A DNA stretch of 32,000 bases from Rhodocyclaceae bacterium (GTDB lineage Bacteria; Pseudomonadota; Gammaproteobacteria; Burkholderiales; Rhodocyclaceae). Below, one piece after another: positions 238-27,054 of this stretch. A program made the translations under genes and the position numbers. Location: NCBI GenBank assembly GCA_018262775.1, contig JADFDU010000033.1, forward strand, positions 1-32,000, read 5' to 3'. The notes beneath the pieces are model-generated. The model did no database searches, was not told where the DNA came from, and worked only from the letters and a program-made list of their open reading frames with translations. Positions within the stretch are counted from its first letter, which is position 1, and each line of letters begins with the position of its first letter.

Positions 238-2958
238 ATGATTCCCCGCCTCCTCAAGAAACTATTCGGCAGCCGCAATGACCGGCTGATCCGCCAGTAC
301 GGTCACGCCGTGCGTGCCATCAATGCTCTCGAAGCATCCGTCAGCGTCCTCTCTGACGAGCAGTTGCGTGGCAAGACCGACGAGTTCCGCCAGAAGCTGG
401 CAGCCGGCGCTGCGCTTGACGACCTCCTGGCGGAAGCCTTTGCCGTGGTGCGCGAGGCGGGCAGGCGCGCCCTCGGCATGCGCCACTTCGACGTGCAGCT
501 GATCGGCGGCATGGTGCTGCACGACGGCAAGATCGCGGAGATGCGCACCGGCGAGGGCAAGACCCTGGCCGCCACCCTGCCGGCCTACCTGAACGCCCTC
601 TCCGGCAAGGGCGTGCACGTCGTCACGGTCAACGACTACCTGGCCTCGCGTGACGCTGAGTGGATGGCCAAGCTCTACCACTTCCTCGGCATGAGCGTCG
701 GCGTCAATCTGTCGCAGATGTCGCATGAGCAGAAGCAGGCCGCCTATGCTGCCGACATCACTTACGGCACCAACAACGAATTCGGCTTCGACTACCTGCG
801 CGACAACATGGTCTACACGGCGGGGGAGCGGGTGCAGAAAAAGCTCAATTTCGCCATCGTTGACGAAGTCGATTCCATCCTCATCGACGAGGCGCGCACG
901 CCGCTCATCATTTCCGGCCAGGCCGAGGACCATACCGACCTCTACGTGCGCATGAACCAGGTGGCGCCGCTGCTCACCCGCCAAGCAGACGAGAAGGGCG
1001 AGGGCGACTACTGGGTCGACGAGAAAGCGCATACGGTGTTGCTCTCTGAGATCGGCCATGAGCACGCCGAAGAGATTCTCGCGCGCCAGGGCATGCTGGC
1101 CGAGGGCAGCAGCCTCTACGAGCCGGGCAACATCCTCCTCATGCATCATCTCTACGCCGCTTTGCGCGCGCACAGCCTGTTTCATCTCGACCAGCATTAC
1201 GTGTCGCAGAACGGCGAGATCGTCATCGTCGACGAATTCACCGGCCGCCTCATGCCGGGCCGGCGCTGGTCAGACGGCCTGCACCAGGCGGTCGAGGCGA
1301 AGGAGGGCGTGTCGATCCAGAACGAGAACCAGACACTCGCCTCGATCACCTTCCAGAACTATTTCCGCATGTACGCCAGGCTGTCCGGCATGACCGGCAC
1401 GGCCGACACGGAGGCCTACGAGTTTCACCAGATATACAGTCTGGAAACGGTGGTCATTCCTACCAACCAGCCGATGATTCGCGAAGACCGCATGGACCAG
1501 GTCTATCGCACTGCAGCGGAAAAGCATCGCGCCATCATCGACGACATTCGCGGCTGCCACCAGCGCGGTCAACCGGTGCTGGTCGGCACGACATCCATCG
1601 AGAATTCCGAGCTGCTCTCCGGCATGCTGGACCAGGAAAAGCTGCCGCACCAGGTGCTCAACGCCAAGCAGCACGCGAAAGAGGCGCTCATCGTCGCCCA
1701 GGCCGGCCGTCCCGGCATGATCACCATCGCCACCAACATGGCCGGTCGCGGCACCGACATCGTGCTCGGCGGCAACGTCGAGAAACAGGTCGAGGCGCTG
1801 CGAGCCGATACGCCGATGTCGGAGGCCGACGAGGAGGCCCGCAGCACCCAGTTGCGTGGCGAATGGCAGGCGCTGCACGCGCAGACGGTGAAGGCCGGCG
1901 GCCTGCACATCATCGGCTCCGAACGGCACGAATCGCGGCGCATCGACAACCAGCTGCGTGGTCGTGCCGGCCGCCAGGGCGACCCCGGCTCCAGCCGTTT
2001 CTACCTTTCCCTGGAGGATCCGCTGCTGCGCATTTTTGCCGGCGAGCGCCTCAATGCCATCATGGTACGGCTGAAAATGCCCGAGGGCGAGGCCATCGAG
2101 CACCCGCTGGTGACGCGCTCGCTCGAATCGGCGCAACGCAAGGTGGAACAGCGCAACTTCGACATCCGCAAGCAGCTGCTGGAGTACGACGACGTCTCCA
2201 ACGATCAGCGCAAGGTGATCTACCAGCAGCGCAACGAGCTGCTCGAGACGGACGACATCGCCGAAACCATCACGGCCATGCGCCAGGGCGTGTTGCACGA
2301 CGTCTTTCGCACCTACGTGCCGGCGGACAGCGTCGAAGAGCAGTGGGACATCGTCGCTGCCGAAGCCGCCCTGGCCGCCGAGTACCAGTTGCAGTTGCCG
2401 CTCGGCGAGTGGCTCAAGGCGGAGCCCGAGCTCACGGATGACGCCATCGTCCGCCGCATCCTGGATGAGGCGGACCGCCACTACGCCGCCAAGGTCGAAC
2501 TGGTGGGGGCCGAGTCCTTCCACCACTTCGAGCGCAACATGATGCTGCAAAGCCTCGACACGCACTGGCGCGAACATCTGGCGGCGCTGGACCATCTGCG
2601 CCAGGGCATCCATCTGCGCGGCTATGCGCAGAAAAACCCGAAGCAGGAGTACAAGCGCGAGGCCTTCGAGCTGTTCGAGGGCCTGCTGCACTTGGTTCGT
2701 AATGAAGTCACCCAGCTGCTCATGACCGTCGAGATCCGCTCGCAGGAACAGATTGAGGCGAGCGAGCCGCAGCAGACCGTGGAGAACGTGCAATACCACC
2801 ATTCCGACTACGACGAGGCGCTGGGCCTGGGCATGCCGGACGATGCGGAAAGGCCAGTCCAGCCCCACGTACGCCATGGGCAGAAGGTCGGCCGCAATGA
2901 TCCCTGCCCCTGCGGTTCAGGCAGGAAATACAAGCACTGCCACGGCAAGCTGAGCTAG
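238..2958 (+). CDS. secA: Preprotein translocase ATPase SecA
   Basis: 906-aa ORF. N-terminus [16 protein letters not shown], Walker [27 protein letters not shown] box, and C-terminal zinc finger [14 protein letters not shown]. Confidence 0.97.
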
Positions 2959-2979
2959 GGCGCATCCTGGTCGCGCGCC

Positions 2980-3855
2980 ATGACTCAGGACTTGCATTCC
3001 CATGATCGATTGAATGCCTGGATCGAGCGCATCCGCGATCAGGAACTGCCCATCTTCGGCCGCACGGCCGAACAGATCCGCGCACTGACCGACAATGACA
3101 AGGCGGCAGTATCCCAGCTGGCTGATGCCATCCTCTGCGATCCCGGCATGACGGCCAAGCTGCTGCGCATTGCCAACAGCGTCATCTTCAACACTTCGGG
3201 CACCCAGATCACCACCATCAGCCGGGCCGTCCTGATGCTCGGCTTCAATATGGTGCGGCAGGTTGCCCTCTCGGTCGCCTTCGTGGACGCCTTGCTGCGT
3301 GGGCCGGTGCGGGAGCGGGTGTTGCGCGAGATGGGGCGGGCCTGCCATGCTGCCACACAGGCGCGTTGGCTGGCCTCGAGAAGGCATGACGTGCAGCCGG
3401 AGGAAGCCTTCATCGCCGCCTTGCTCTATCGCTTCGGCGAGATGGCTTTCTGGTGCCTTGCCGGCGAAACCGGCGACGAGCTTGAGGCAGCCCTGCGCCA
3501 AAATCCGAACACACCAGGCGAGGTTGAACAGTCTCTGCTCGGTTTCCGCCTGAACCAACTCACCATCGCCATGGTGCACGACTGGCGCGTCAGCCCGCTG
3601 TTGCAAAGCATCCTCAAGGGCACCTATCCAAGGCGTTCGCGCGAGCAGGCCGTAGTGCTCGCCTTCCGCCTGGCCGAGGATTCCGAGAACGGCTGGCACA
3701 GCGAGCGTGCCCGTGCCCGGCTGAAGGATGTCGCCGAGTACCTGCAGCAGCCGCTCGAAGAAATTGCCGGCCCGGTGATGAAGAACGCCATCGATGCGGC
3801 TGCCATCGCCGAGTGCTACGGAGCGGGCAGCGCAGTGCGCTTCATTCCGCAGTAG
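2980..3855 (+). CDS. HDOD domain-containing signalling protein
   Basis: 291-aa ORF 21 nt after secA. The N-terminal [14 protein letters not shown]...[22 protein letters not shown] pattern is typical of HDOD domains. No other domain recognised. Confidence 0.75.
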
Positions 3856-3910
3856 TCTGCGCCATCGATTATCATCCGCTTCGTTTGCACGCCCGCGCCG
3901 AGACCCCATC

Positions 3911-5137
3911 ATGCCCGTCAACCTGAAGCCGCCCGTCGCCGCACAACTCCTGCCCGTCCCGGGTGTCGCCCTCGGCATTGCCCGGGCCGGCATCCGCAAG
4001 GCCAATCGCCGCGACCTGCTGCTGATCCGCCTCGACGAAGGGGCCGCCGTCGCCGGCGTGTTTACGCAGAACCGCTTTTGCGCCGCGCCGGTCATCGTCT
4101 GCCGCGAGCACCTGGAAGGCACCGGCATTCGCGCGCTTGTCGTCAACACCGGTATCGCCAACGCCGGCACTGGCGCGCCCGGCATGCAGGCGGCGCGCGA
4201 CACCTGCGCCGCCGCGGCGCGGCTGCTCGGTTGCGCGCCACAGCAGGTGCTGCCGTTTTCCACCGGCGTCATCATGGAGCCGCTGCCCGTCGAACGCCTT
4301 GTGGCGGGGCTGCCGGCCTGCGTGGCTGATTTGCGCGAGAGCAACTGGGACGCCGCCGCCGAGGCCATCATGACCACCGACACCCTGCCCAAGGCGGTTT
4401 CGCGGAAAGTCAGCCTCGGCGGTACGGCGGTCACGATCACCGGCATCGCCAAAGGCGCCGGCATGATCCGCCCCAACATGGCCACCATGCTCGGCTTCGT
4501 CGCCACGGATGCCTCGGTAGCGCAGCCTGTATTGGAACAACTCGTGCGCGAGGCGGCCGACGCCTCTTTCAACTGCATCACGGTGGATGGCGACACCTCG
4601 ACCAACGATTCCTTCATGCTCATCGCCAGCGGGCGGGCGGGCAATGCACCGATCGCCGATGTCGCCTCCGAGGGCTATGCTGCGCTGAAGGAAGCCGTCA
4701 CCGCCGTGGCGGCGGAACTCGCCCAGGCCATCGTCCGCGACGGCGAGGGTGCCACCAAGTTCATTACCGTCGCCGTTCAGGGCGGCCGCGACATCGCCGA
4801 ATGCAAGGCCGTCGGCTACGCCATCGGCCATTCGCCGCTGGTGAAGACCGCCTTCTTCGCTTCCGATCCCAACCTCGGCCGCATCCTCGCCGCCATCGGC
4901 AACGCCGGCATTGCCGACCTCGACGTCGCGCGCTTGAAGCTCTGGCTTGATGAGGTACTGGTGGCCGAAAACGGCGGGCCTGCGGCGAGCTATCGCGAGG
5001 GGGAGGGCGCGCGGGTGATGAAACAGGAGGAGATCACGGTGCGCATCGATCTCGCCCGCGGCGATGCGCAGGCTACCGTGTGGACCTGCGACTTTTCCTA
5101 CGACTACGTGAAGATCAACGCGGATTACCGCAGTTGA
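3911..5137 (+). CDS. argJ: Bifunctional ornithine acetyltransferase / N-acetylglutamate synthase ArgJ
   Basis: ATG 3911 (MPVNLKP...) preferred over the upstream in-frame start at 3794. IMTTDT motif, self-cleavage region [15 protein letters not shown]-terminal INADYRS. Confidence 0.92.
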
Positions 5138-7371: not shown

Positions 7372-8859
7372 ATGATGACCGAAGCCGCATTCAACGCGTT
7401 GGCCGCGCAGGGCTATAACCGTATTCCGGTGACCCTGGAAACCTTCGCCGACCTCGATACCCCCCTTTCGATCTACCTCAAGCTGGCCACTGGTAACAGT
7501 GGCGCCTATACCTACCTGCTCGAGTCCGTGCAAGGTGGCGAGCGCTTCGGCCGCTATTCCTTCATCGGCCTGTCCGCGCCGACGCGCATCGCCGCCTATG
7601 GCCGCGACGTCATGGTGCTCACCGGCCACCGCATCGCCGAGCGGCGCGACGATTGTGATCCGCTCGCCTTCGTCGGCGAGTACATGGCGCGCTTCCGGCT
7701 CGCGCCGCGCGCCGGCCTGCCGCGCTTCTGCGGCGGCCTCGTCGGCTGCTTCGGCTACGACACCGTGCACTACATCGAGCCGAAGCTGGCAAAGACGCAA
7801 AAGCCCGACGCGCTCGGCACGCCCGACGTGCTGCTGCTCCTCTCCGAGGAAATTGCCGTTGTCGACAACCTCTCCGGCAAGCTGACCCTGGTGGTGTATG
7901 CCGAGCCCGGCGTGCCCGGCGCCTTCAAGCGCGCCCAGACGCGGCTGAAGGAACTGCTGGTGCGGCTGCGTGAACCCGTGGCCATTCCCCCCGAACAGCC
8001 CGTTGCGTCGCAGGCGGCTGTCTCTTCATTCGGCGAGGAACCCTTCAAGCAGGCCGTGGCGCGCGCCAAGCAATACATCGTCGACGGCGACATCATGCAG
8101 GTGGTGCTCTCGCAGCGCATGTCGAAACCCTTCGCCGCCACGCCGCTGGCGCTCTACCGCGCGCTGCGCACCCTCAATCCCTCGCCCTACATGTTCTACT
8201 TCGACTTCGAGGACTTCCACGTCGTCGGCGCCTCGCCGGAGATCCTCGTTCGCCTGGAGGACGGCAGCGTCACCCTGCGGCCGATCGCCGGCACGCGTCG
8301 GCGCGGCAAGACGGTCGAGGAAGACGAGGCCCTCGCCGCCGAACTGCTCACCGACGAAAAGGAACGCGCCGAGCACCTCATGCTGCTCGACCTCGGCCGC
8401 AACGACGTCGGCCGCGTGGCGCAGACCGGCAGCGTCAAGGTGACCGAGCAGTTCGTCATCGAGCGCTACTCGCACGTGATGCACATCGTCTCCAGCGTCG
8501 AAGGCAGGCTGAAGCCCGAGCTGGATGCGCTAGCGGTGCTGCGCGCCACCTTCCCCGCCGGCACGGTGTCCGGTGCGCCCAAAGTGCGGGCGATGGAGGT
8601 CATTGACGAGCTGGAGCCGGTCAAGCGCGGCCTCTACGCCGGCGCCGTCGGCTACCTCGGCTTCCACGGCGACATGGACCTCGCCATCGCCATCCGCACC
8701 GCCGTCGTCAAGGACGGCCACATCCACGTCCAAGCCGGCGCCGGCATCGTCGCCGATTCCGACCCGGCCGCGGAATGGCAGGAGACGCAGAGCAAGGCCC
8801 GCGCCCAACTGCGCGCCGCCGAAATGGCCGAGTCGGGCCTCGATACGCGCTTGGATTGA
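7372..8859 (+). CDS. trpE: Anthranilate synthase component I
   Basis: ATG 7372 preceded by GGAG (7366-7369). [28 protein letters not shown], and the C-terminal GAVGYLGF...AIRT...[10 protein letters not shown] chorismate-binding signature. Confidence 0.95.
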
Positions 8860-8860
8860 A

Positions 8861-9331
8861 CCGCATTCAACACAGAGGGCACAGAGGTACAGAGAACACA
8901 GAGATGGAAGACAATGTCCTTTCCGGTCAGGTGATTGGCGCCGCGATTGAAGTGCATCGGGTTCTGGGCCCGGGGCTGCTTGAGTCGGCCTATGAGCTGG
9001 CGCTGGAGCGAGAGCTCCGGCTGCTCGGGCTCGACGTTCTTCGCCAGGTGCCGGTCCCGCTTCAGTACAAAGGTGCGAACCTTGGGGACGGATTTCGCAT
9101 CGACATTCTCGTGAGCGGGTTGCTGCTGGTCGAGATCAAGGCAGTCGAACAGCTTGCGCCTTTGCACGAAGCCCAGCTATTGACCTATTTGCGCTTGACC
9201 GGCAAGCGGCATGGGTTGCTCATCAATTTCAACGTCTCGGCGCTCAAGAACGGGGTCAAACGGGTGGTAAATGGATACTAGATTTTTCTCTGTGATCTCT
9301 GTGCCTCCGTGTCCTCTGTGTTTAAAGAGGT
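8861..9331. mobile_element. CACAGAG-repeat palindromic element, cargo-bearing copy (arms 8861-8903 and 9282-9331 flank the GxxExxY gene)
   Basis: Left arm caaCACAGAGGgCACaGAGGtACAGAGAaCACAGAG. The reverse complement of the right arm is aaaCACAGAGGaCACgGAGGcACAGAGAtCACAGAG. The same arms occur back-to-back at 9910-10022 and 11078-11180. Confidence 0.6.
8904..9281 (+). CDS. GxxExxY family protein (PD-(D/E)xK nuclease fold)
   Basis: 125 aa from ATG 8904. GLLESAY is the GxxExxY motif. FRIDILV...LLLVEIKAV fits D...ExK nuclease catalytic spacing. In-frame TTG 8856 overlapping the trpE stop is an alternative start. Confidence 0.85.
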   Translation: MEDNVLSGQVIGAAIEVHRVLGPGLLESAYELALERELRLLGLDVLRQVPVPLQYKGANLGDGFRIDILVSGLLLVEIKAVEQLAPLHEAQLLTYLRLTGKRHGLLINFNVSALKNGVKRVVNGY

Positions 9332-9338
9332 TCCCCCC

Positions 9339-9902
9339 ATGCTCCTGATGATCGACAACTACGACTCCTTCACCTACAACCTGGTGCAGTATTTCGGCGA
9401 GCTGGATGAGGAGGTGCGCGTCTTCCGCAATGACGAAATTTCGGTTGAGGGCATTGTCGCGCTCAAGCCCGATCGCATCGTCGTCTCCCCCGGTCCCTGT
9501 TCGCCCGCCGAGGCCGGCATCTCGGTGGCGGTGATCCGGGCGTTTGCCGGCAAGGTTCCGTTGCTGGGCGTCTGCCTCGGCCACCAATGCATCGGCGCCG
9601 CTTTCGGCGGCAAGGTCGTGCATGCCCGCCAACTCATGCACGGCAAGACATCATTGGTGCAGCATGCCGGCGCCGGCGTTTTCCGCGACCTGCCGAATCC
9701 CTTCACCGCCACGCGCTACCACTCGCTCGCCATCGAGCGTGCCTCGCTGCCGGATTGCCTTGAAGTGACGGCGTGGACCGACGACGGCGAGATCATGGGC
9801 GTGCGCCATCGCGAATTCGCTGTGGAAGGCGTGCAGTTCCACCCCGAATCCATCCGCAGCGAGCACGGCCACCGACTGTTGAAGACTTTTTTAGAGACAT
9901 GA
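9339..9902 (+). CDS. trpG: Anthranilate synthase component II (glutamine amidotransferase)
   Basis: ATG 9339 ([18 protein letters not shown]). Catalytic GVCLGHQ and FHPES. AAGAGG at 9325-9330 lies inside the repeat arm. Confidence 0.93.
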
Positions 9903-9909
9903 ACCTTGA

Positions 9910-10022
9910 CCTCTTTCAACACAGAGAGCACAGAGGCACAGAGAACACAGAGAGAGAAACGGTTTTATTCAATGTTCTTCTCTGTGCCCTCTGTGTCCCC
10001 GTGTCCTCTGTGTTGAAAGAGG
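9910..10022. repeat. CACAGAG-repeat palindromic element, cargo-less copy (113 bp)
   Basis: cctctttcaaCACAGAGaGCACAGAGGCACAGAGAACACAGAG...loop...CTCTGTGcCCTCTGTGtCCCcGTGTCCTCTGTGttgaaagagg. Begins 8 nt after the trpG stop and ends 25 nt before the trpD ATG. Confidence 0.88.
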
Positions 10023-10047
10023 TTGCTTTTATTAGGGAGTCAAAATC

Positions 10048-11073: not shown

Positions 11074-11077
11074 GAAA

Positions 11078-11180
11078 CTCTTTCAACACGGAGGGCACAG
11101 AGGCACAGAGGACACAGAGAAGAACTTTCTCTGGATGTTCTCTGTGCTCTCTGTGCCTCTGTGTTCTCTGTGTCAAAAGC
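11078..11180. repeat. CACAGAG-repeat palindromic element, second cargo-less copy (~103 bp)
   Basis: ctctttcaaCACgGAGGGCACAGAGGCACAGAGGACACAGAG...loop...CTCTGTGctCTCTGTGCCTCTGTGttCTCTGTGtcaaaagc. Begins 5 nt after the trpD stop and ends 14 nt before the trpC ATG. Confidence 0.88.
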
Positions 11181-11194
11181 GGTTAAGGCTCCCT

Positions 11195-12112
11195 ATGTCC
11201 GACATCCTGCAGAAAATTCTCGCGGTAAAGCACGAGGAAATCGCCGCCGCGCAGGCAAAAAAGCCGCTCGCCGCCCTGCGCGCCGAGGCCGATGCGCAGT
11301 CGCTGCCGCGCGACTTCGTCGGCGCGATTCGTAAAAAAATCGGCACGAAAGTCAGCCTCGGCAACACGGCGAAATGCGCGGCGGTCATTGCCGAGATCAA
11401 GAAGGCCAGCCCCTCCAAGGGCGTCATCCGCGCCGATTTCCGCCCCGGCGAGATCGCCGCGTCCTATGCGGCCCATGGTGCTACCTGCCTGTCGGTGCTG
11501 ACAGACCGGCAGTTCTTCCAGGGCGCGCCGGAATACCTCGTCGAAGCACGCGCAGCCTGCGCGTTGCCGGTGCTGCGCAAGGATTTCATCATCGACGCCT
11601 ACCAGGTGGTCGAGGCGCGTGCGATGGGGGCTGACTGTATCCTGCTTATCGTCGCGGCCTTCCTCCCCCCTCACCCCAACCCTCTCCCCCGCGGGGGAGA
11701 GGGAGCAACAATCACCCCCTCTCCCCTCGGGGAGAGGGCAGGGGTGAGGGGGGCAGTCGCTCAAATGCGCGAACTCGAAACCCTCGCCCACGAATTCGGC
11801 ATGGCCGTACTGGTCGAGGCGCACGACGACGCCGAACTCGACCTCGCCCTAGCGCTCAAAACCCCGCTCATCGGCATCAACAACCGCAACCTGCGCACCT
11901 TTGCAGTCTCGCTACAGACGACCCTCGATCTGCTGGCACGCATCTCTGCCGATCGCATCGTCGTCACCGAGTCGGGCATCCTGGCGCCTGCCGACGTCAC
12001 CCTCATGCGCGGCCATGGCGTGAATGTCTTCCTCGTCGGCGAGGCCTTCATGCGTGCGCCCGACCCGGGTGCGGAACTGGCTCGGCTGTTCGAACAGGGG
12101 GATTCGTCATGA
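11195..12112 (+). CDS. trpC: Indole-3-glycerol phosphate synthase (carries an in-frame repeat insertion)
   Basis: ATG 11195 ([16 protein letters not shown]). [18 protein letters not shown] and [10 protein letters not shown] motifs. At 305 aa it is about 35-40 aa longer than typical TrpC. Confidence 0.92.
11665..11753. repeat. G/C-rich nested palindromic (REP-like) element embedded in the trpC reading frame
   Basis: Outer inverted repeat cccccctcacccc (11665-11677) / ggggtgagggggg (11741-11753). Two inner hairpins: ccctctcccc-cgcg-ggggagaggg and ccctctcccc-tc-ggggagaggg. Translates in frame as [29 protein letters not shown]. Confidence 0.8.
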
Positions 12113-12572: not shown

Positions 12573-12793
12573 TTCCAATCCTCGATATCCCTGAGGGTGG
12601 CATCCAGTTCGTCGAGGATGGTCTGTTCGGCCGCGTCGTTCGCCACCAGGAGGGATTGACGCCGGCATTCCTCGGCAAATTTCGGTGAGCGGGTATCCGG
12701 TACCCAAATCTGGATCGGCCTGAATCCCTGAGCGCGCATTTTGTCGCGGTAACGGCTGACGCTTTCCCGCGCGGGCTGAGACGAATTTCGCAT
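12569..12793 (-). CDS. mazE: MazE-family antitoxin (DUF3018-like)
   Basis: 74 aa. YRDKMRAQGFRPIQIWVPDTRSPKFAEECRRQSLLVA resembles the MazE-like/DUF3018 pattern. 4-nt overlap with the toxin gene. Confidence 0.72.
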   Translation of the reverse strand: MRNSSQPARESVSRYRDKMRAQGFRPIQIWVPDTRSPKFAEECRRQSLLVANDAAEQTILDELDATLRDIEDWK

Positions 12794-12908
12794 GGCATTT
12801 CCTTTGGTTATTCAGTTCATGCCATATTACATGAAATAAGGCATGAAGGAATCCTGCCGCATCTGGAAACCGTGGTCTGAGCTAGCCCGGTTTGATGGAA
12901 TATCCTTC

Positions 12909-13190
12909 TCAGCCGAAAAGCTCGCTATGAGAGCCAAGACGGGCCAGCCGCAGGGTGTCGCTGTCCGATTTGCGGTAGATCAGCAGTAAATCGGGCTTGA
13001 CGTGGCACTCACGGTAGCCAGCCCAATCGCCGCTCAAATCATGGTCGCGGTGTTTTGGTTCCAACGGCTGGCCGTTCGCCAGAGCCGCCAAGACCGGGAC
13101 CAGGTCAGCATCGAGTGTTGTCCGGTGCTGACCTTTCGCCTCGCGCTTGTAATCTCGCTTGAATGCCGTTGAGCGGTCAATCGTCCGCAT
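12909..13190 (-). CDS. yafQ: Type II toxin, YafQ/RelE family mRNA interferase
   Basis: 93 aa. DHDLSGDWAGYRECHVKPDLLLIYRK...RLGSHSELFG parallels E. coli YafQ DHPLQGSWKGYRDAHVEPDWILIYK...RTGTHAALFG. Confidence 0.87.
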   Translation of the reverse strand: MRTIDRSTAFKRDYKREAKGQHRTTLDADLVPVLAALANGQPLEPKHRDHDLSGDWAGYRECHVKPDLLLIYRKSDSDTLRLARLGSHSELFG

Positions 13191-15428: not shown

Positions 15429-17684
<2,256 letters not shown>

Positions 17685-17698
17685 GTGTTGTATAAATG

Positions 17699-17725
17699 AA
17701 AAAAGCCCTGCCGCGACGGCAGGGC
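17699..17725 (-). terminator. Rho-independent terminator/attenuator downstream of rpmA
   Basis: Minus strand: gccctgcc-gtcgc-ggcagggc followed by TTTTTT (complement of A 17699-17704). Lies 24 nt after the rpmA stop. Confidence 0.7.
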
Positions 17726-17748
17726 TTTTGTCGCGGTGACCGGGTTGC

Positions 17749-23425: not shown

Positions 23426-23523
23426 AAATTTCCGGTGTAGCGCGGCGACGCAAACGCATCGGCAAGCATGAGGTTTTTTTGCGACACGGATTTTTGGGGT
23501 ATGGCGAAAAATGCAGAAAACAC

Positions 23524-23552
23524 TTGCATCCGAAAAGTCAAGCTACTAGAAT
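23524..23552 (+). promoter_or_regulatory. Candidate sigma70 promoter
   Basis: TTGCAT (23524-23529), 17 nt, TAGAAT (23547-23552). About 470 nt upstream of the next convincing start codon (24026). Confidence 0.45.
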
Positions 23553-24025: not shown

Positions 24026-24649
24026 ATGGCTACTGCTAAGAAACCCGCTTCTAAAGCCAAGAAGCCCGCTGCCAAAAAACCGGCGGTGAAGAAGGCCGCC
24101 GCCAAGAGGCCGGCGGCGAAGAAGAAGCCTGCTGCGAAGAAGGCCGCTACCAAGAAGCCGGCAGTGAAGAAGGCCGCTGCCAAGAAGCTGGCGGCGAAGA
24201 AGAAGGCTGCTGCCAAGCGGCCGGCGGCGAAAAAAGCTGCTGCCAAGAAGCCTGCTGCGAAGAAGGCTGCTGCCAAGAAGCCGGCGGCGAAGAAGAAGGC
24301 TGCTGCCAAGCGGCCGGCGGCGAAAAAAGCTGCCAAAAAAGTAGCGAAGAAAAAGCCGGCAGCAAAGAAAGCGGCCAAAAAGAAGCCTGCGGCGAAAAAA
24401 GCAGCAAAGAAAAAGCCTGCGGCGAAAAAAGCAGCAAAGAAAAAGCCTGCGGCGAAAAAGAAGCCTGCGGCGAAAAAAGCGGCGAAAAAGAAGCCTGCGG
24501 CAAAGAAAGCAGCGAAGCCTGCTGCGAAACCGGCGGCAGCCCCTGCGACTGCCTCCTCCATGCCGTCAACCGCTGCTGCTCCAGGCCTGAAGTCATCGCT
24601 CAATCCGGCGGCAGCTTGGCCTTTCCCGACCGGCTCGCGTCCTTCCTGA
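24026..24649 (+). CDS. Histone H1-like / AlgP-like lysine-alanine-proline repeat protein (probable nucleoid-associated)
   Basis: AGGAGG 24014-24019, ATG 24026. About 170 aa of KKPAAKKAA repeats, then a non-repetitive tail ...SSLNPAAAWPFPTGSRPS. The antisense FFAAG ORF is a shadow. Confidence 0.8.
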   Translation: MATAKKPASKAKKPAAKKPAVKKAAAKRPAAKKKPAAKKAATKKPAVKKAAAKKLAAKKKAAAKRPAAKKAAAKKPAAKKAAAKKPAAKKKAAAKRPAAKKAAKKVAKKKPAAKKAAKKKPAAKKAAKKKPAAKKAAKKKPAAKKKPAAKKAAKKKPAAKKAAKPAAKPAAAPATASSMPSTAAAPGLKSSLNPAAAWPFPTGSRPS

Positions 24650-24723: not shown

Positions 24724-24797
24724 GACGCTACCCTGCCAGTCTGGCAAGCATGGGCACTGCATTGAACTGGGTGCAGTTAATGTGCGACGCACAATTA

Positions 24798-24838
24798 TTG
24801 CCATATATATTGACAAAGCTATAATAAATCAACACAAT
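24798..24838 (+). promoter_or_regulatory. Two overlapping sigma70 promoter candidates in an AT-rich patch
   Basis: TTGCCA (24798), 16 nt, TATAAT (24820-24825). Also TTGACA (24810-24815), 17 nt, CACAAT (24833-24838). Preceded by the 13-bp palindrome tgtgcgacgcaca (24781-24793). Confidence 0.4.
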
Positions 24839-25064
24839 GATAAATGCTGCATCGCCATATTTTTTAGAAGTTAAAACCAAGATTCGAGGCGGCTCTTAGT
24901 CTAGGATTAGCGGCAGTTCTACTCTCGGTTCATCCGGCAACCGGGATAAGCGCGCCACAAAGTGTCGCGCCTTGTTATTCATTCCCTTCAGTTTCAGACC
25001 ATGGTGCCCAACGCCATGGCGAATTAGCGGGGAGCAGATGGCCCGGAATTTGAAAGGAGCAAGC

Positions 25065-25766: not shown

Positions 25767-27054
25767 CTAATTTCCCAGATAGCGCGCCATGCGCGCTACC
25801 CCCTCTTCCAGTTTGTCCCTTGCCACCGTGTAGGCAAAACGCACGTGCCGTTGCGGCGCGTTCGCTCCGAAGTCCAGGCCCGGCGTGATGGCGACGCCGG
25901 GCTTTTCGATGAGCTCGCGAGCAAAAGCCTCGCTGTCTGGCGTGATCCGCGAGCAGTCGGCGTAAAGATAGAAGGCTCCGCGGGGCTCCGCGGCGATGCG
26001 GAATCCCATGCGGCGCAAAGCCGGCAGCAAATAATCACGCCGTGCCTTGAACTCTGCCCGCCGTGTTTCCAACAATGCAATCGTCTCAGGCAGAAACGCG
26101 GCCAGGGCAGCATGCTGTGCTGGTGCCGATGGCGAGATGAACAGGTTCTGCGCCAGTTTCTCGATGTCGCGCTTGAAGCGCTGCGGGGCCACCAGCCAGC
26201 CCAGCCGCCAGCCGGTCATGCCGAAATATTTTGACAAGTGTTTTAGCTTTTTACCCCAATAGTGTTTTCTATTGTAAAAACCGGTCTAATTTTTTACTCA
26301 ATAGAAAACATGTTGAGAAACTATTGATGACAAAAATCTCGTCCGAGAGCGCGAGAGCGGTGTCGGTATCGCGGCCACCCCCCAAGGGGACGTCCTTCGG
26401 GGCGTAGGTCAAGCCGTGGTATATCTCGTCCACCAGCAACGCCCCGCCGCGTTTGGCGACGCAGTCAGCCAGTTCGACCATAGAGGCTGTTTCAATCAGG
26501 GTGCCCGTTGGATTGGCCGGTGACGCGACCAGGAGCCCCTTGCTGCGCGGTGTCCAGTGCTGCGCCACCTGTTCGGCCGTGGGTTGATAGTTCGTTTCCG
26601 GGCCGACGGCCATGGCGCGTGGCGCACCTTCCAGCGTGCGCACGAAATGCCGGTTGCAGGGGTAGCCGGGATCGGGCAGCAGCAGTTCGTCGCCGGGGTT
26701 CAGCAGTGCGGCCAGGGCGAGCAACAAGGCCCCTGATGAACCAGCGGTGACGGCGATGCGCTCAGGGGAGACATTGACGCCGTAGCGTTCGGCGTAGAAA
26801 CGGGAAATCGCCTCGCGCAATGGGGGGATGCCGAGGGCCGGGGTGTAGAAAACCTGGCCTTGACGGATGAATGCCTCTGCTGCCTCGATGACGGCGGGCG
26901 GCGTGGGAAAGTCCGGCTCGCCCACTTCCATGTGGATGATGCTGCGGCCCTCGGCCTCAAGCTGACGAGCGCGCGTGAGCAGTTCCATGACATGAAAGGG
27001 CGCGATGTCGGCCATGCGCCGGGCCGGGGCCGGCTGGGGAAGGTGACGGCTCAT
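25767..27054 (-). pseudogene. Class I/II PLP-dependent aminotransferase, interrupted at the PLP-lysine codon by an 82-bp insertion
   Basis: The N-terminal part (27054-26314) ends ...DEIFVINSFS then reads into the insert and stops. The C-terminal part resumes (S)KYFGMTGWRLGWLV at 26234. Deleting 26235-26316 restores VINSFSKYFGMTGW and a 401-codon frame. Confidence 0.85.
26235..26316. mobile_element. AT-rich miniature hairpin element (78 bp plus a second copy of TTGA)
   Basis: TTGA at 26231-26234 and 26313-26316. Perfect 12-bp inverted repeat tgttttctattg (26263-26274) / caatagaaaaca (26299-26310). CAATAG-tgtttt-CTATTG palindrome at 26257-26274. Strongly AT-rich compared with the flanking coding sequence. 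Confidence 0.6.

Follow-up and report, generated by a model that had tools for sequence, protein, structure and literature searches.

The DNA considered here, which we call the window, is a stretch of 32,000 nucleotides from a Rhodocyclaceae bacterium (NCBI assembly GCA_018262775.1, contig JADFDU010000033.1, positions 1 to 32,000). On its minus strand lies a class-I aminotransferase gene that is split in two by a short AT-rich insert, and this insert is the subject of the present analysis. The upstream open reading frame (ORF; 26269-27054) reads ...LSDEIFVINSFS, continues for 14 foreign codons, TCFLLSKKLDRFLQ, and ends at a TAG stop codon, while a second ORF on the same strand (25767-26237) picks up the aminotransferase at (M/L)SKYFGMTGWRLGW. 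An earlier inspection of the letters without database searches (the sequence-only reading) had described just this: an AT-rich insert of 82 bp that splits the gene at the codon of the lysine binding pyridoxal phosphate (PLP), with EIFVINSFS followed by 14 foreign codons and a stop. Indeed, all of these elements are seen.

If 82 bp are deleted, for which five registers from 26231-26312 to 26235-26316 are equivalent, a single ORF of 401 codons results, ...VINSFSKYFGMTGW..., in which the SxSK motif is rebuilt as had been claimed. The equivalence of five registers means that a 4-bp direct repeat brackets the insert, and the TTGA reported on both sides is this repeat. The rebuilt protein matches the PLP-dependent aminotransferase model NCBIfam PRK08960 from end to end (616.8 bits, cutoff 554) and has thousands of full-length homologues. 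Its true start is likely MADIAPF, which would give a protein of 388 amino acids, the same as in relatives; 401 codons would then be the longest-ORF count. The insert itself (26235-26316) has 29% GC against 63% in the window, where just one other stretch is equally AT-rich at this scale, an intergenic promoter region near 24787-24880.

The comparison with relatives is, in our opinion, decisive for the question of whether something was inserted. We had DNA of 14 relatives from four lineages, with 81-90% nucleotide identity to the window gene, and all 14 have an intact gene with an empty site, ...ATC AAC AGY TTC TCG AAR TAY TTC..., where AAR follows TCG directly, and no sequence related to the insert occurs at the locus. 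The nearest relatives come from wastewater samples. The possibility that a conserved spacer separates two genuine genes, which the sequence-only reading had named as its own refutation, finds no support in these 14 relatives. The relatives carry a single TCGA at the empty site, and the G>A difference implies that the allele that received the insert already read TCAA. A related metagenome-assembled genome shares the gene order PckG, aminotransferase, SLT. Along the branch leading to the window gene (about 5% divergence, roughly half of the 10% nucleotide difference from its sister gene) we count 32 synonymous and 12 nonsynonymous changes, as compared with 41 and 17 along the branch of the uninterrupted sister gene; in this respect the N-terminal and C-terminal halves do not differ. 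Since the interrupted gene shows no relaxed constraint, the insertion is recent relative to that branch. The insertion is thus real, precise and recent. It is also present in the deposited consensus, since the source assembly annotates the two halves as two genes: the N-terminal fragment is a 248-aa singleton gene, and the gene caller starts the C-terminal fragment at ATG 26219 (150 aa). Identical sequences of both fragments and of PckG are found in one NCBI assembly, on a contig of 185,191 bp, and the fragments are singletons there.

As to the consequences for the enzyme, the 82 added bases would shift the frame at the serine preceding the Schiff-base lysine. The 247 N-terminal residues of the 401-codon ORF (234 when counted from MADIAPF) would run into the 14 foreign codons and the TAG, and the Schiff-base lysine would be severed together with the C-terminal 154 residues. 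Because of the frameshift and the loss of the catalytic lysine and of these 154 residues, the insertion most probably inactivates the aminotransferase. The 14 insert-derived codons are all rare in the host genome, and rare codons are to be expected in a gap that is AT-rich. A restart downstream finds little help: the sole Shine-Dalgarno-like run, GGGG, lies 14 nt upstream of the in-frame TTG, ATG 26219 has none, and neither of these two restart codons has a well-placed one. No polar effect is expected, because the downstream neighbour (SLT) is convergent and lies on the other strand.

Anatomy of the insert and its flanks

The positions of the features are collected in Table 1. The sequence-only reading had listed a 12-bp inverted repeat with a 24-nt spacer, a CAATAG-n6-CTATTG palindrome and a repeated AGTGTTTT, and we could locate all three: the inverted repeat is perfect and lies at 26263-74/26299-310 with the spacer as given, the palindrome at 26257-74, and AGTGTTTT begins at 26237 and again at 26261.

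Table 1. Features of the insert, its direct repeats and the interrupted gene (window coordinates; slashes in the layout mark the junctions)
Feature	Position	Strand	Remarks
N-terminal gene fragment	26269-27015	-	native part of 234 residues (counted from MADIAPF), then a tail of 14 residues encoded by the insert; TAG at 26269-71
C-terminal gene fragment	25767-26237	-	insert-supplied in-frame TTG (26235-37) directly before SKYFG
78-bp core	26235-26312		29% GC, non-coding; register arbitrary within the 4-bp repeat; missing in 14 relatives
Left 4-bp direct repeat TTGA (coding strand TCAA)	26231-26234		from the five-register deletion test
Right 4-bp direct repeat TTGA	26313-26316		from the five-register deletion test
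Main hairpin	26263-26310		perfect 12-bp arms TGTTTTCTATTG / CAATAGAAAACA, inner stem across a small bulge
Alternative hairpin TTTTTAC-cc-CAATAG [TGTTTT] CTATTG-TAAAAA	26248-26280		3' arm common with the main hairpin
Host flank	26317-26337	-	carries TTC>TTT and AAC>AAT; TCG>TCA sits in the direct repeat
Coding-strand layout			host A[TTTTT-gtcat-CAATAG]TTTC TCA / ACA TGTTTT [CTATTG-agt-AAAAAA] ttagaccgg [TTTTT-a-CAATAG] AAAACA [CTATTG-ggg-TAAAAA] gc TAAAACA cttg TCA / AAA

Secondary structure dominates the insert. When the insert is shuffled with its dinucleotides kept, 0.04% of the shuffles contain a perfect inverted repeat of at least 12 bp (P=0.0004), and the region folds better than shuffles do (z = -2.3 as RNA, -2.7 as DNA). 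In minimum free energy folds 6-7 bp of the inner stem of the main hairpin are paired, with -12.6 kcal/mol as RNA. The main and the alternative hairpins are mutually exclusive, having one arm in common. On the coding strand, three short motifs (TGTTTT, CAATAG and TTTTTAC) make up the insert, being reused in direct and inverted orientation.

The ends of the insert read CAAGTGTTTT... and ...AAAACATG, and they form a short imperfect inverted repeat, CAagTGTTTT... / ...AAAACAtg, in which CATGTTTT is the right-end counterpart. The longest open frame through the insert has 28 codons and no homologue, and a promoter and terminator scan of the insert returned no promoter-like or terminator-like site. 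Against Rfam 15 the insert has no match at the gathering threshold, the best sub-threshold hit reaching 19.5 bits (cutoff 50, E=1.6).

The host sequence next to the junction has changed as well. Three derived synonymous GC>AT changes (TTC>TTT, AAC>AAT and TCG>TCA) lie within 7 codons of the junction, at codons -6, -3 and 0 relative to the junction serine (window 26313-26337), whereas all 14 relatives keep the GC-ending codons. With all three changes in place the flank reads TTTTTgtcatCAATAG, a sequence similar to the T-run/CAATAG motif of the insert; they also create the TCAA repeat. An anchored clustering test of the three changes gives P=0.045, and the similarity of flank and insert has P=0.03 as compared with 0.59 for the ancestral flank. 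We treat this resemblance as weak, because the window contains several unrelated AT-rich 40-mers whose match to the insert is equally good or better. Probably the changes reflect an AT-rich target that attracted the element, or chance; they may also stem from co-conversion of the flank from a donor allele, or from selection on local structure.

Identity of the insert

On balance we think that the insert is probably a non-autonomous mobile element similar to a miniature inverted-repeat transposable element (MITE). Such an element would have been inserted once, and recently, at the AT-richest stretch of the gene (...ATC AAT AGT TTC TCA AAA TAT TTC...). A staggered 4-bp cut at TCAA that was subsequently filled in would have produced the TTGA/TCAA duplication, and the transposase responsible would be encoded outside the window. 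The sequence-only reading had also proposed the recent insertion of a miniature element. What stands of that proposal is that the insert is recent, precise, foreign and non-coding (14 of 14 empty sites, 32:12 against 41:17) and has the general look of a MITE; a search for further copies, which would place it in a repeated family, was negative in all the collections covered.

Prokaryotic MITEs have been characterised as shorter than 500 bp and AT-rich, with a stable stem-loop and a preference for AT-rich sites, and young copies are flanked by direct repeats (PMC10969869). According to the same review their terminal inverted repeats measure about 4-30 bp, and their copy number may be as low as one per genome (PMC10969869). 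The 78-bp core lies within this size range and is non-coding, TTGA is found on both sides, the insert is AT-rich with a stem-loop, and its target is the AT-richest part of the gene. Other short palindromic elements exist in the same genome, one of them inside trpC, which indicates that insertions of this kind do occur here.

The closest parallels known to us are MITEs that disrupt coding sequences, such as the Correia elements of Neisseria and MITEAba12 of Acinetobacter (PMC10969869, PMC6382973). Like these, the insert is small, non-coding and AT-rich and has a stem-loop; it also shares with them the short flanking direct repeat, the AT-rich target and the inactivation of a gene. It differs from them in that no family, parent insertion sequence (IS) or second copy has been found and in that its ends form a very short, imperfect inverted repeat. 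Correia elements, moreover, duplicate TA, unlike the 4-bp TTGA of the insert. A further comparison can be made with the Rickettsia palindromic elements (RPEs), described as selfish palindromes inside protein-coding genes (Ogata et al. 2000, as cited in PMC10969869). The insert resembles them in being a palindrome inside a coding gene. However, RPE-type palindromes stay in frame and leave the protein readable, whereas the 82 nt of the insert shift the frame, bring a stop after 14 codons and displace the lysine.

Several observations weigh against a MITE-like element. The terminal inverted repeat is weak: without a gap 6 bases match in a row, a gap of 2 nt gives 8 matches in 10, and part of this agreement stems from the TGTTTT motif inside the insert. 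The TTGA target could not be tied to a named IS family, and the window encodes no transposase or integrase, TnpA and TnpB included. The repeated family or parent IS expected of a MITE did not appear, either in the window or in seven public collections, where the large scans were of the exact-match type. Within the window, which is the part of the source genome that was covered, mismatch-tolerant searches and local alignment returned no second copy, as the sequence-only reading had already reported. One genome per GTDB species (596 Gb) gave 11 matches to the hairpin arms and the JGI metagenomes gave 16, all of them chance hairpins; the 27 matches share nothing with the insert outside the specified arms. 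These two scans were therefore negative, with the reservation that the patterns demanded an exact match to 22 specified bases with a gap of 15-40 nt between the arms, so that diverged relatives would be missed. In IMG/VR, five patterns (arms, termini, centre and degenerate hairpin) found nothing. The same was true of blastn with 86 bp against plasmids (7.3 Gb), phages (2.3 Gb) and E. coli, where nothing significant emerged, and of a mismatch-tolerant comparison of the six-frame translation with 5.8 billion proteins. The insert is hence an orphan in the collections searched.

One partial resemblance inside the window should be mentioned. The AT-rich intergenic sequence TGGCGAAAAATGCAGAAAACACTTG at 23501-23526 resembles the last 25 coding-strand nucleotides of the insert (score 14). 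As a candidate remnant copy it has to be rejected, since the match, the best partial one in the window, is not significant against shuffles (P about 0.28).

We see here an ordinary kind of event, the strain-level knock-out of a gene by a small insertion, with an element that is an orphan to an unusual degree. Its 29% GC in a genome of 63% GC, together with the failure to find a relative, suggests that it came from outside the host genome. Precise deletion of a palindrome that lies between direct repeats is mechanistically easy. Given that the insert is such a palindrome, its precise loss should be easy too, and the knock-out may be reversible; the intact gene could return through slippage or through precise excision by a transposase. 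The position of the insert, exactly at the catalytic-lysine codon of a conserved and undecayed enzyme, with flanking repeats that permit precise reversion, makes it a natural case in which the excision, and less likely the read-across, of a palindromic insert could be measured. If the source genome has more copies, they would make up a new family of structured elements that are very small (78 bp) and target TCAA/TTGA.

Other explanations

It is possible, though in our opinion unlikely, that the insert is a one-off remnant or a captured fragment that belongs to no repeated family. In one version, a larger IS or transposon that had made a 4-bp duplication lost its interior and left a 78-bp 'solo' of its two ends; in another, a foreign fragment was ligated into a staggered break that was filled in. 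Both agree with the foreign base composition and with the orphan status in every collection searched, and a parent whose arms lie far apart would have escaped the gapped pattern (15-40 nt). On the other hand, three motifs reused in direct and inverted orientation look like a designed fold rather than like IS ends or random filler, and in the plasmids and phages, both of which abound in IS copies, there was no end-like match better than E=0.2.

A more specific proposal, put forward as one hypothesis by the sequence-only reading, derives the insert from the IS200/IS605 family. It would be a miniature (PATE-like) element, moved as single-stranded DNA by a Y1 TnpA and inserted 3' of TCAA (or TTGA) without duplication, its right end finishing in the same tetranucleotide. 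We consider this derivation quite unlikely. Some features do speak for it. Subterminal hairpins, not long terminal repeats, dominate the insert, as hairpins dominate the ends of IS200/IS605 elements and PATEs (PMC3119063), and TCAA is the right-end cleavage tetranucleotide of IS608. An end copy of the target would imitate a duplication; the layout TCAA / element...TCAA indeed fits insertion 3' of a fixed tetranucleotide, but with a single copy it fits a true 4-bp duplication equally well. A 7-bp stem on the minus strand starts 15 nt from the left junction (19 nt in IS608), and directly before its foot, on the 5' side, stands TTGA, which is the plain Watson-Crick complement of TCAA; among possible guides this is the one partial fit.

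The details of the IS608 system are what this derivation fails to reproduce. IS608 has separate left and right imperfect palindromes (IPL and IPR) that TnpA binds simultaneously (PMC3201880), with cleavage tetranucleotides 19 nt 5' and 10 nt 3' of the palindromes, and a guide sits directly 5' of each hairpin foot: TTAC is recognised with AAAG and TCAA with GAAT, by the pairing G2:C-3, G3:C-4 and G4:C-1 (PMC3201880, PMC5934647). The hairpins of the insert are not a separate left and right pair but overlap; they share an arm (minus-strand positions 37-43) and cannot coexist, whereas the IS608 transpososome binds both ends at once. The guides that the IS608 rule would call for (NAAT for TTGA, NGAT for TCAA) stand at no hairpin foot, so that the pairing of guide and cleavage site is lacking, and the tetranucleotide at the foot of the second hairpin is CCGG, unrelated to TCAA. 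The insert, at 78-82 nt, does not reach the length of the LE80/LE100 and RE45-RE70 ends that served as oligonucleotide substrates in experiments (PMC3201880), and neither TnpA nor TnpB is encoded in the window. The proposed ancestry, consequently, was not borne out, and of the two types of miniature element that had been considered we keep to the MITE-like one with a 4-bp duplication.

That the 82 bp are absent from the DNA of the organism, as an artefact of assembly or sequencing, we regard as very improbable. It is true that this is a single instance of foreign composition in an apparently metagenome-derived NCBI assembly. Bad joins, however, do not yield a clean 4-bp duplication together with the exact restoration of a conserved motif and of the reading frame, and blastn gave no significant match to phage, plasmid or E. 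coli DNA. To our knowledge, the insert matches no adapter or vector and resembles no FRT or loxP scar.

Extremely improbable, in our judgement, is the view that the gap is tolerated, either because ribosomes bypass 79 nt from UCA to UCA in the manner of the gene-60 'hop' or because separately made fragments reassemble. The gap as a recoding signal deserves a fuller account, even though we give it hardly any credence. Ribosomes would take off at UCA, aided by the rare ACA and the hairpin, and would land on the second UCA to produce an intact SFSK enzyme. The codons at the two edges do match (UCA/UCA), the codon after the take-off codon is the rare ACA (2.5 per thousand among 5,710 window codons), a strong hairpin begins 3 nt past the take-off codon, and GGGG occurs within the AU-rich sequence of the gap. 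In addition, the gene is undecayed, and three derived synonymous changes adjoin the insert. The gene 60 cassette of T4 (bioRxiv 10.1101/2022.08.31.505936; PMC5462505) is similar in being a non-coding gap in a conserved enzyme gene with identical edge codons, and further in its stem-loop past the take-off site, its poorly decoded next codon and its mobile origin.

Every one of these resemblances is to be expected from target duplication and AT-richness; matched codons, in particular, follow automatically from any target duplication. There are also differences. The gap measures 79 nt and exceeds the 50 nt of gene 60, there is no stop directly after the take-off codon (the first one in frame follows 15 codons later), no conserved nascent-peptide signal and no homing endonuclease. 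For AGG as a very rare 'hungry' codon a frequency of 0.08% has been quoted (bioRxiv 10.1101/2022.08.31.505936; PMC5462505); ACA, though rare here, lies well above this value. The GGGG run is not close to the landing codon, being 14 nt upstream of the TTG that precedes it. None of the 14 relatives has any insert, so there is no conservation, and the upstream peptide is ordinary conserved enzyme sequence. The undecayed state of the gene is equally well explained by recency. As for separately made fragments, neither restart codon has a usable Shine-Dalgarno sequence, and a split at the Schiff-base lysine would be an unlikely one for complementation. Were bypassing nevertheless to take place, the junction-spanning peptide would be ...VINSFSKYFGMTGWR, the three synonymous flank changes would be adaptations of the take-off context, and a tiny mobile element would have brought to a bacterial chromosome an equivalent of the gene-60 hop known from phage.

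A few further classes were set aside on inspection: an integron attC site (no R''/R' boxes, no G/TT at the left junction), IS91, ISCR or Helitron-like elements (no CTTG/GTTC or A/T target), REP/REPIN sequences (not repeated here, no GTAG), and group I or II introns or an intein (for which the length of the insert is much too small and, moreover, not divisible by 3).

Palindromes and genes elsewhere in the window

Apart from the insert, the window is an ordinary piece of chromosome from a betaproteobacterium of the Rhodocyclales. Its genes include secA, apaG, rpe, trpE-G-D-C, a porin gene, those for L21/L27, a PilS-like kinase and an H1-like protein, and also the SLT transglycosylase, the aminotransferase, a GTP-dependent PEP carboxykinase (PckG) and malic enzyme.

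The palindrome in trpC (ORF about 11195-12112, plus strand) is of a different character from the AT-rich insert. It is GC-rich, about 89 bp long (11665-11753; CCCCCCTCACCCCAACCCTCTCCCCCGCGGGGGAGAGGG ... CCCCCTCTCCCCTCGGGGAGAGGGCAGGGGTGAGGGGGG), and lies in frame; the about 30 residues that it adds (157-190 of the query) are missing from 6y88, a homologue of known structure. The ORF stays open, and we describe it as an RPE-like coding palindrome. The trp region contains a second kind of palindromic sequence, namely hairpin repeats of about 115 bp rich in CACAGAG/CTCTGTG, at 9283-9333, 9901-10024 and 11075-11191, with arms that are 84-89% complementary. They fill the spacer upstream of trpG and those on either side of trpD (trpG-trpD and trpD-trpC), and an ORF between trpE and trpG (8775-9281) starts with the translated motif (...HRGHRGTENTE...). 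This looks like a MITE- or REP-like family of the host, unrelated to the AT-rich insert.

Two long ORFs with coding-like GC content at third codon positions, 2917-4644 (minus strand, 575 aa) and 16327-17739 (plus strand, 470 aa), went unmatched in Pfam at E<=0.001 and could be wrong-strand frames or novel proteins. A toxin gene of the YafQ/ParE type (12909-13190, minus strand; Pfam PF15738, 110.7 bits) adjoins a low-GC stretch at 12776-12855. Finally, the H1-like gene (24026-24649, plus strand) encodes a lysine/alanine-rich protein of 207 aa with AAKKPAAKK repeats that matches Pfam HC2 (histone H1-like nucleoprotein) with 81 bits, and the opposite strand of this gene contains long spurious ORFs.

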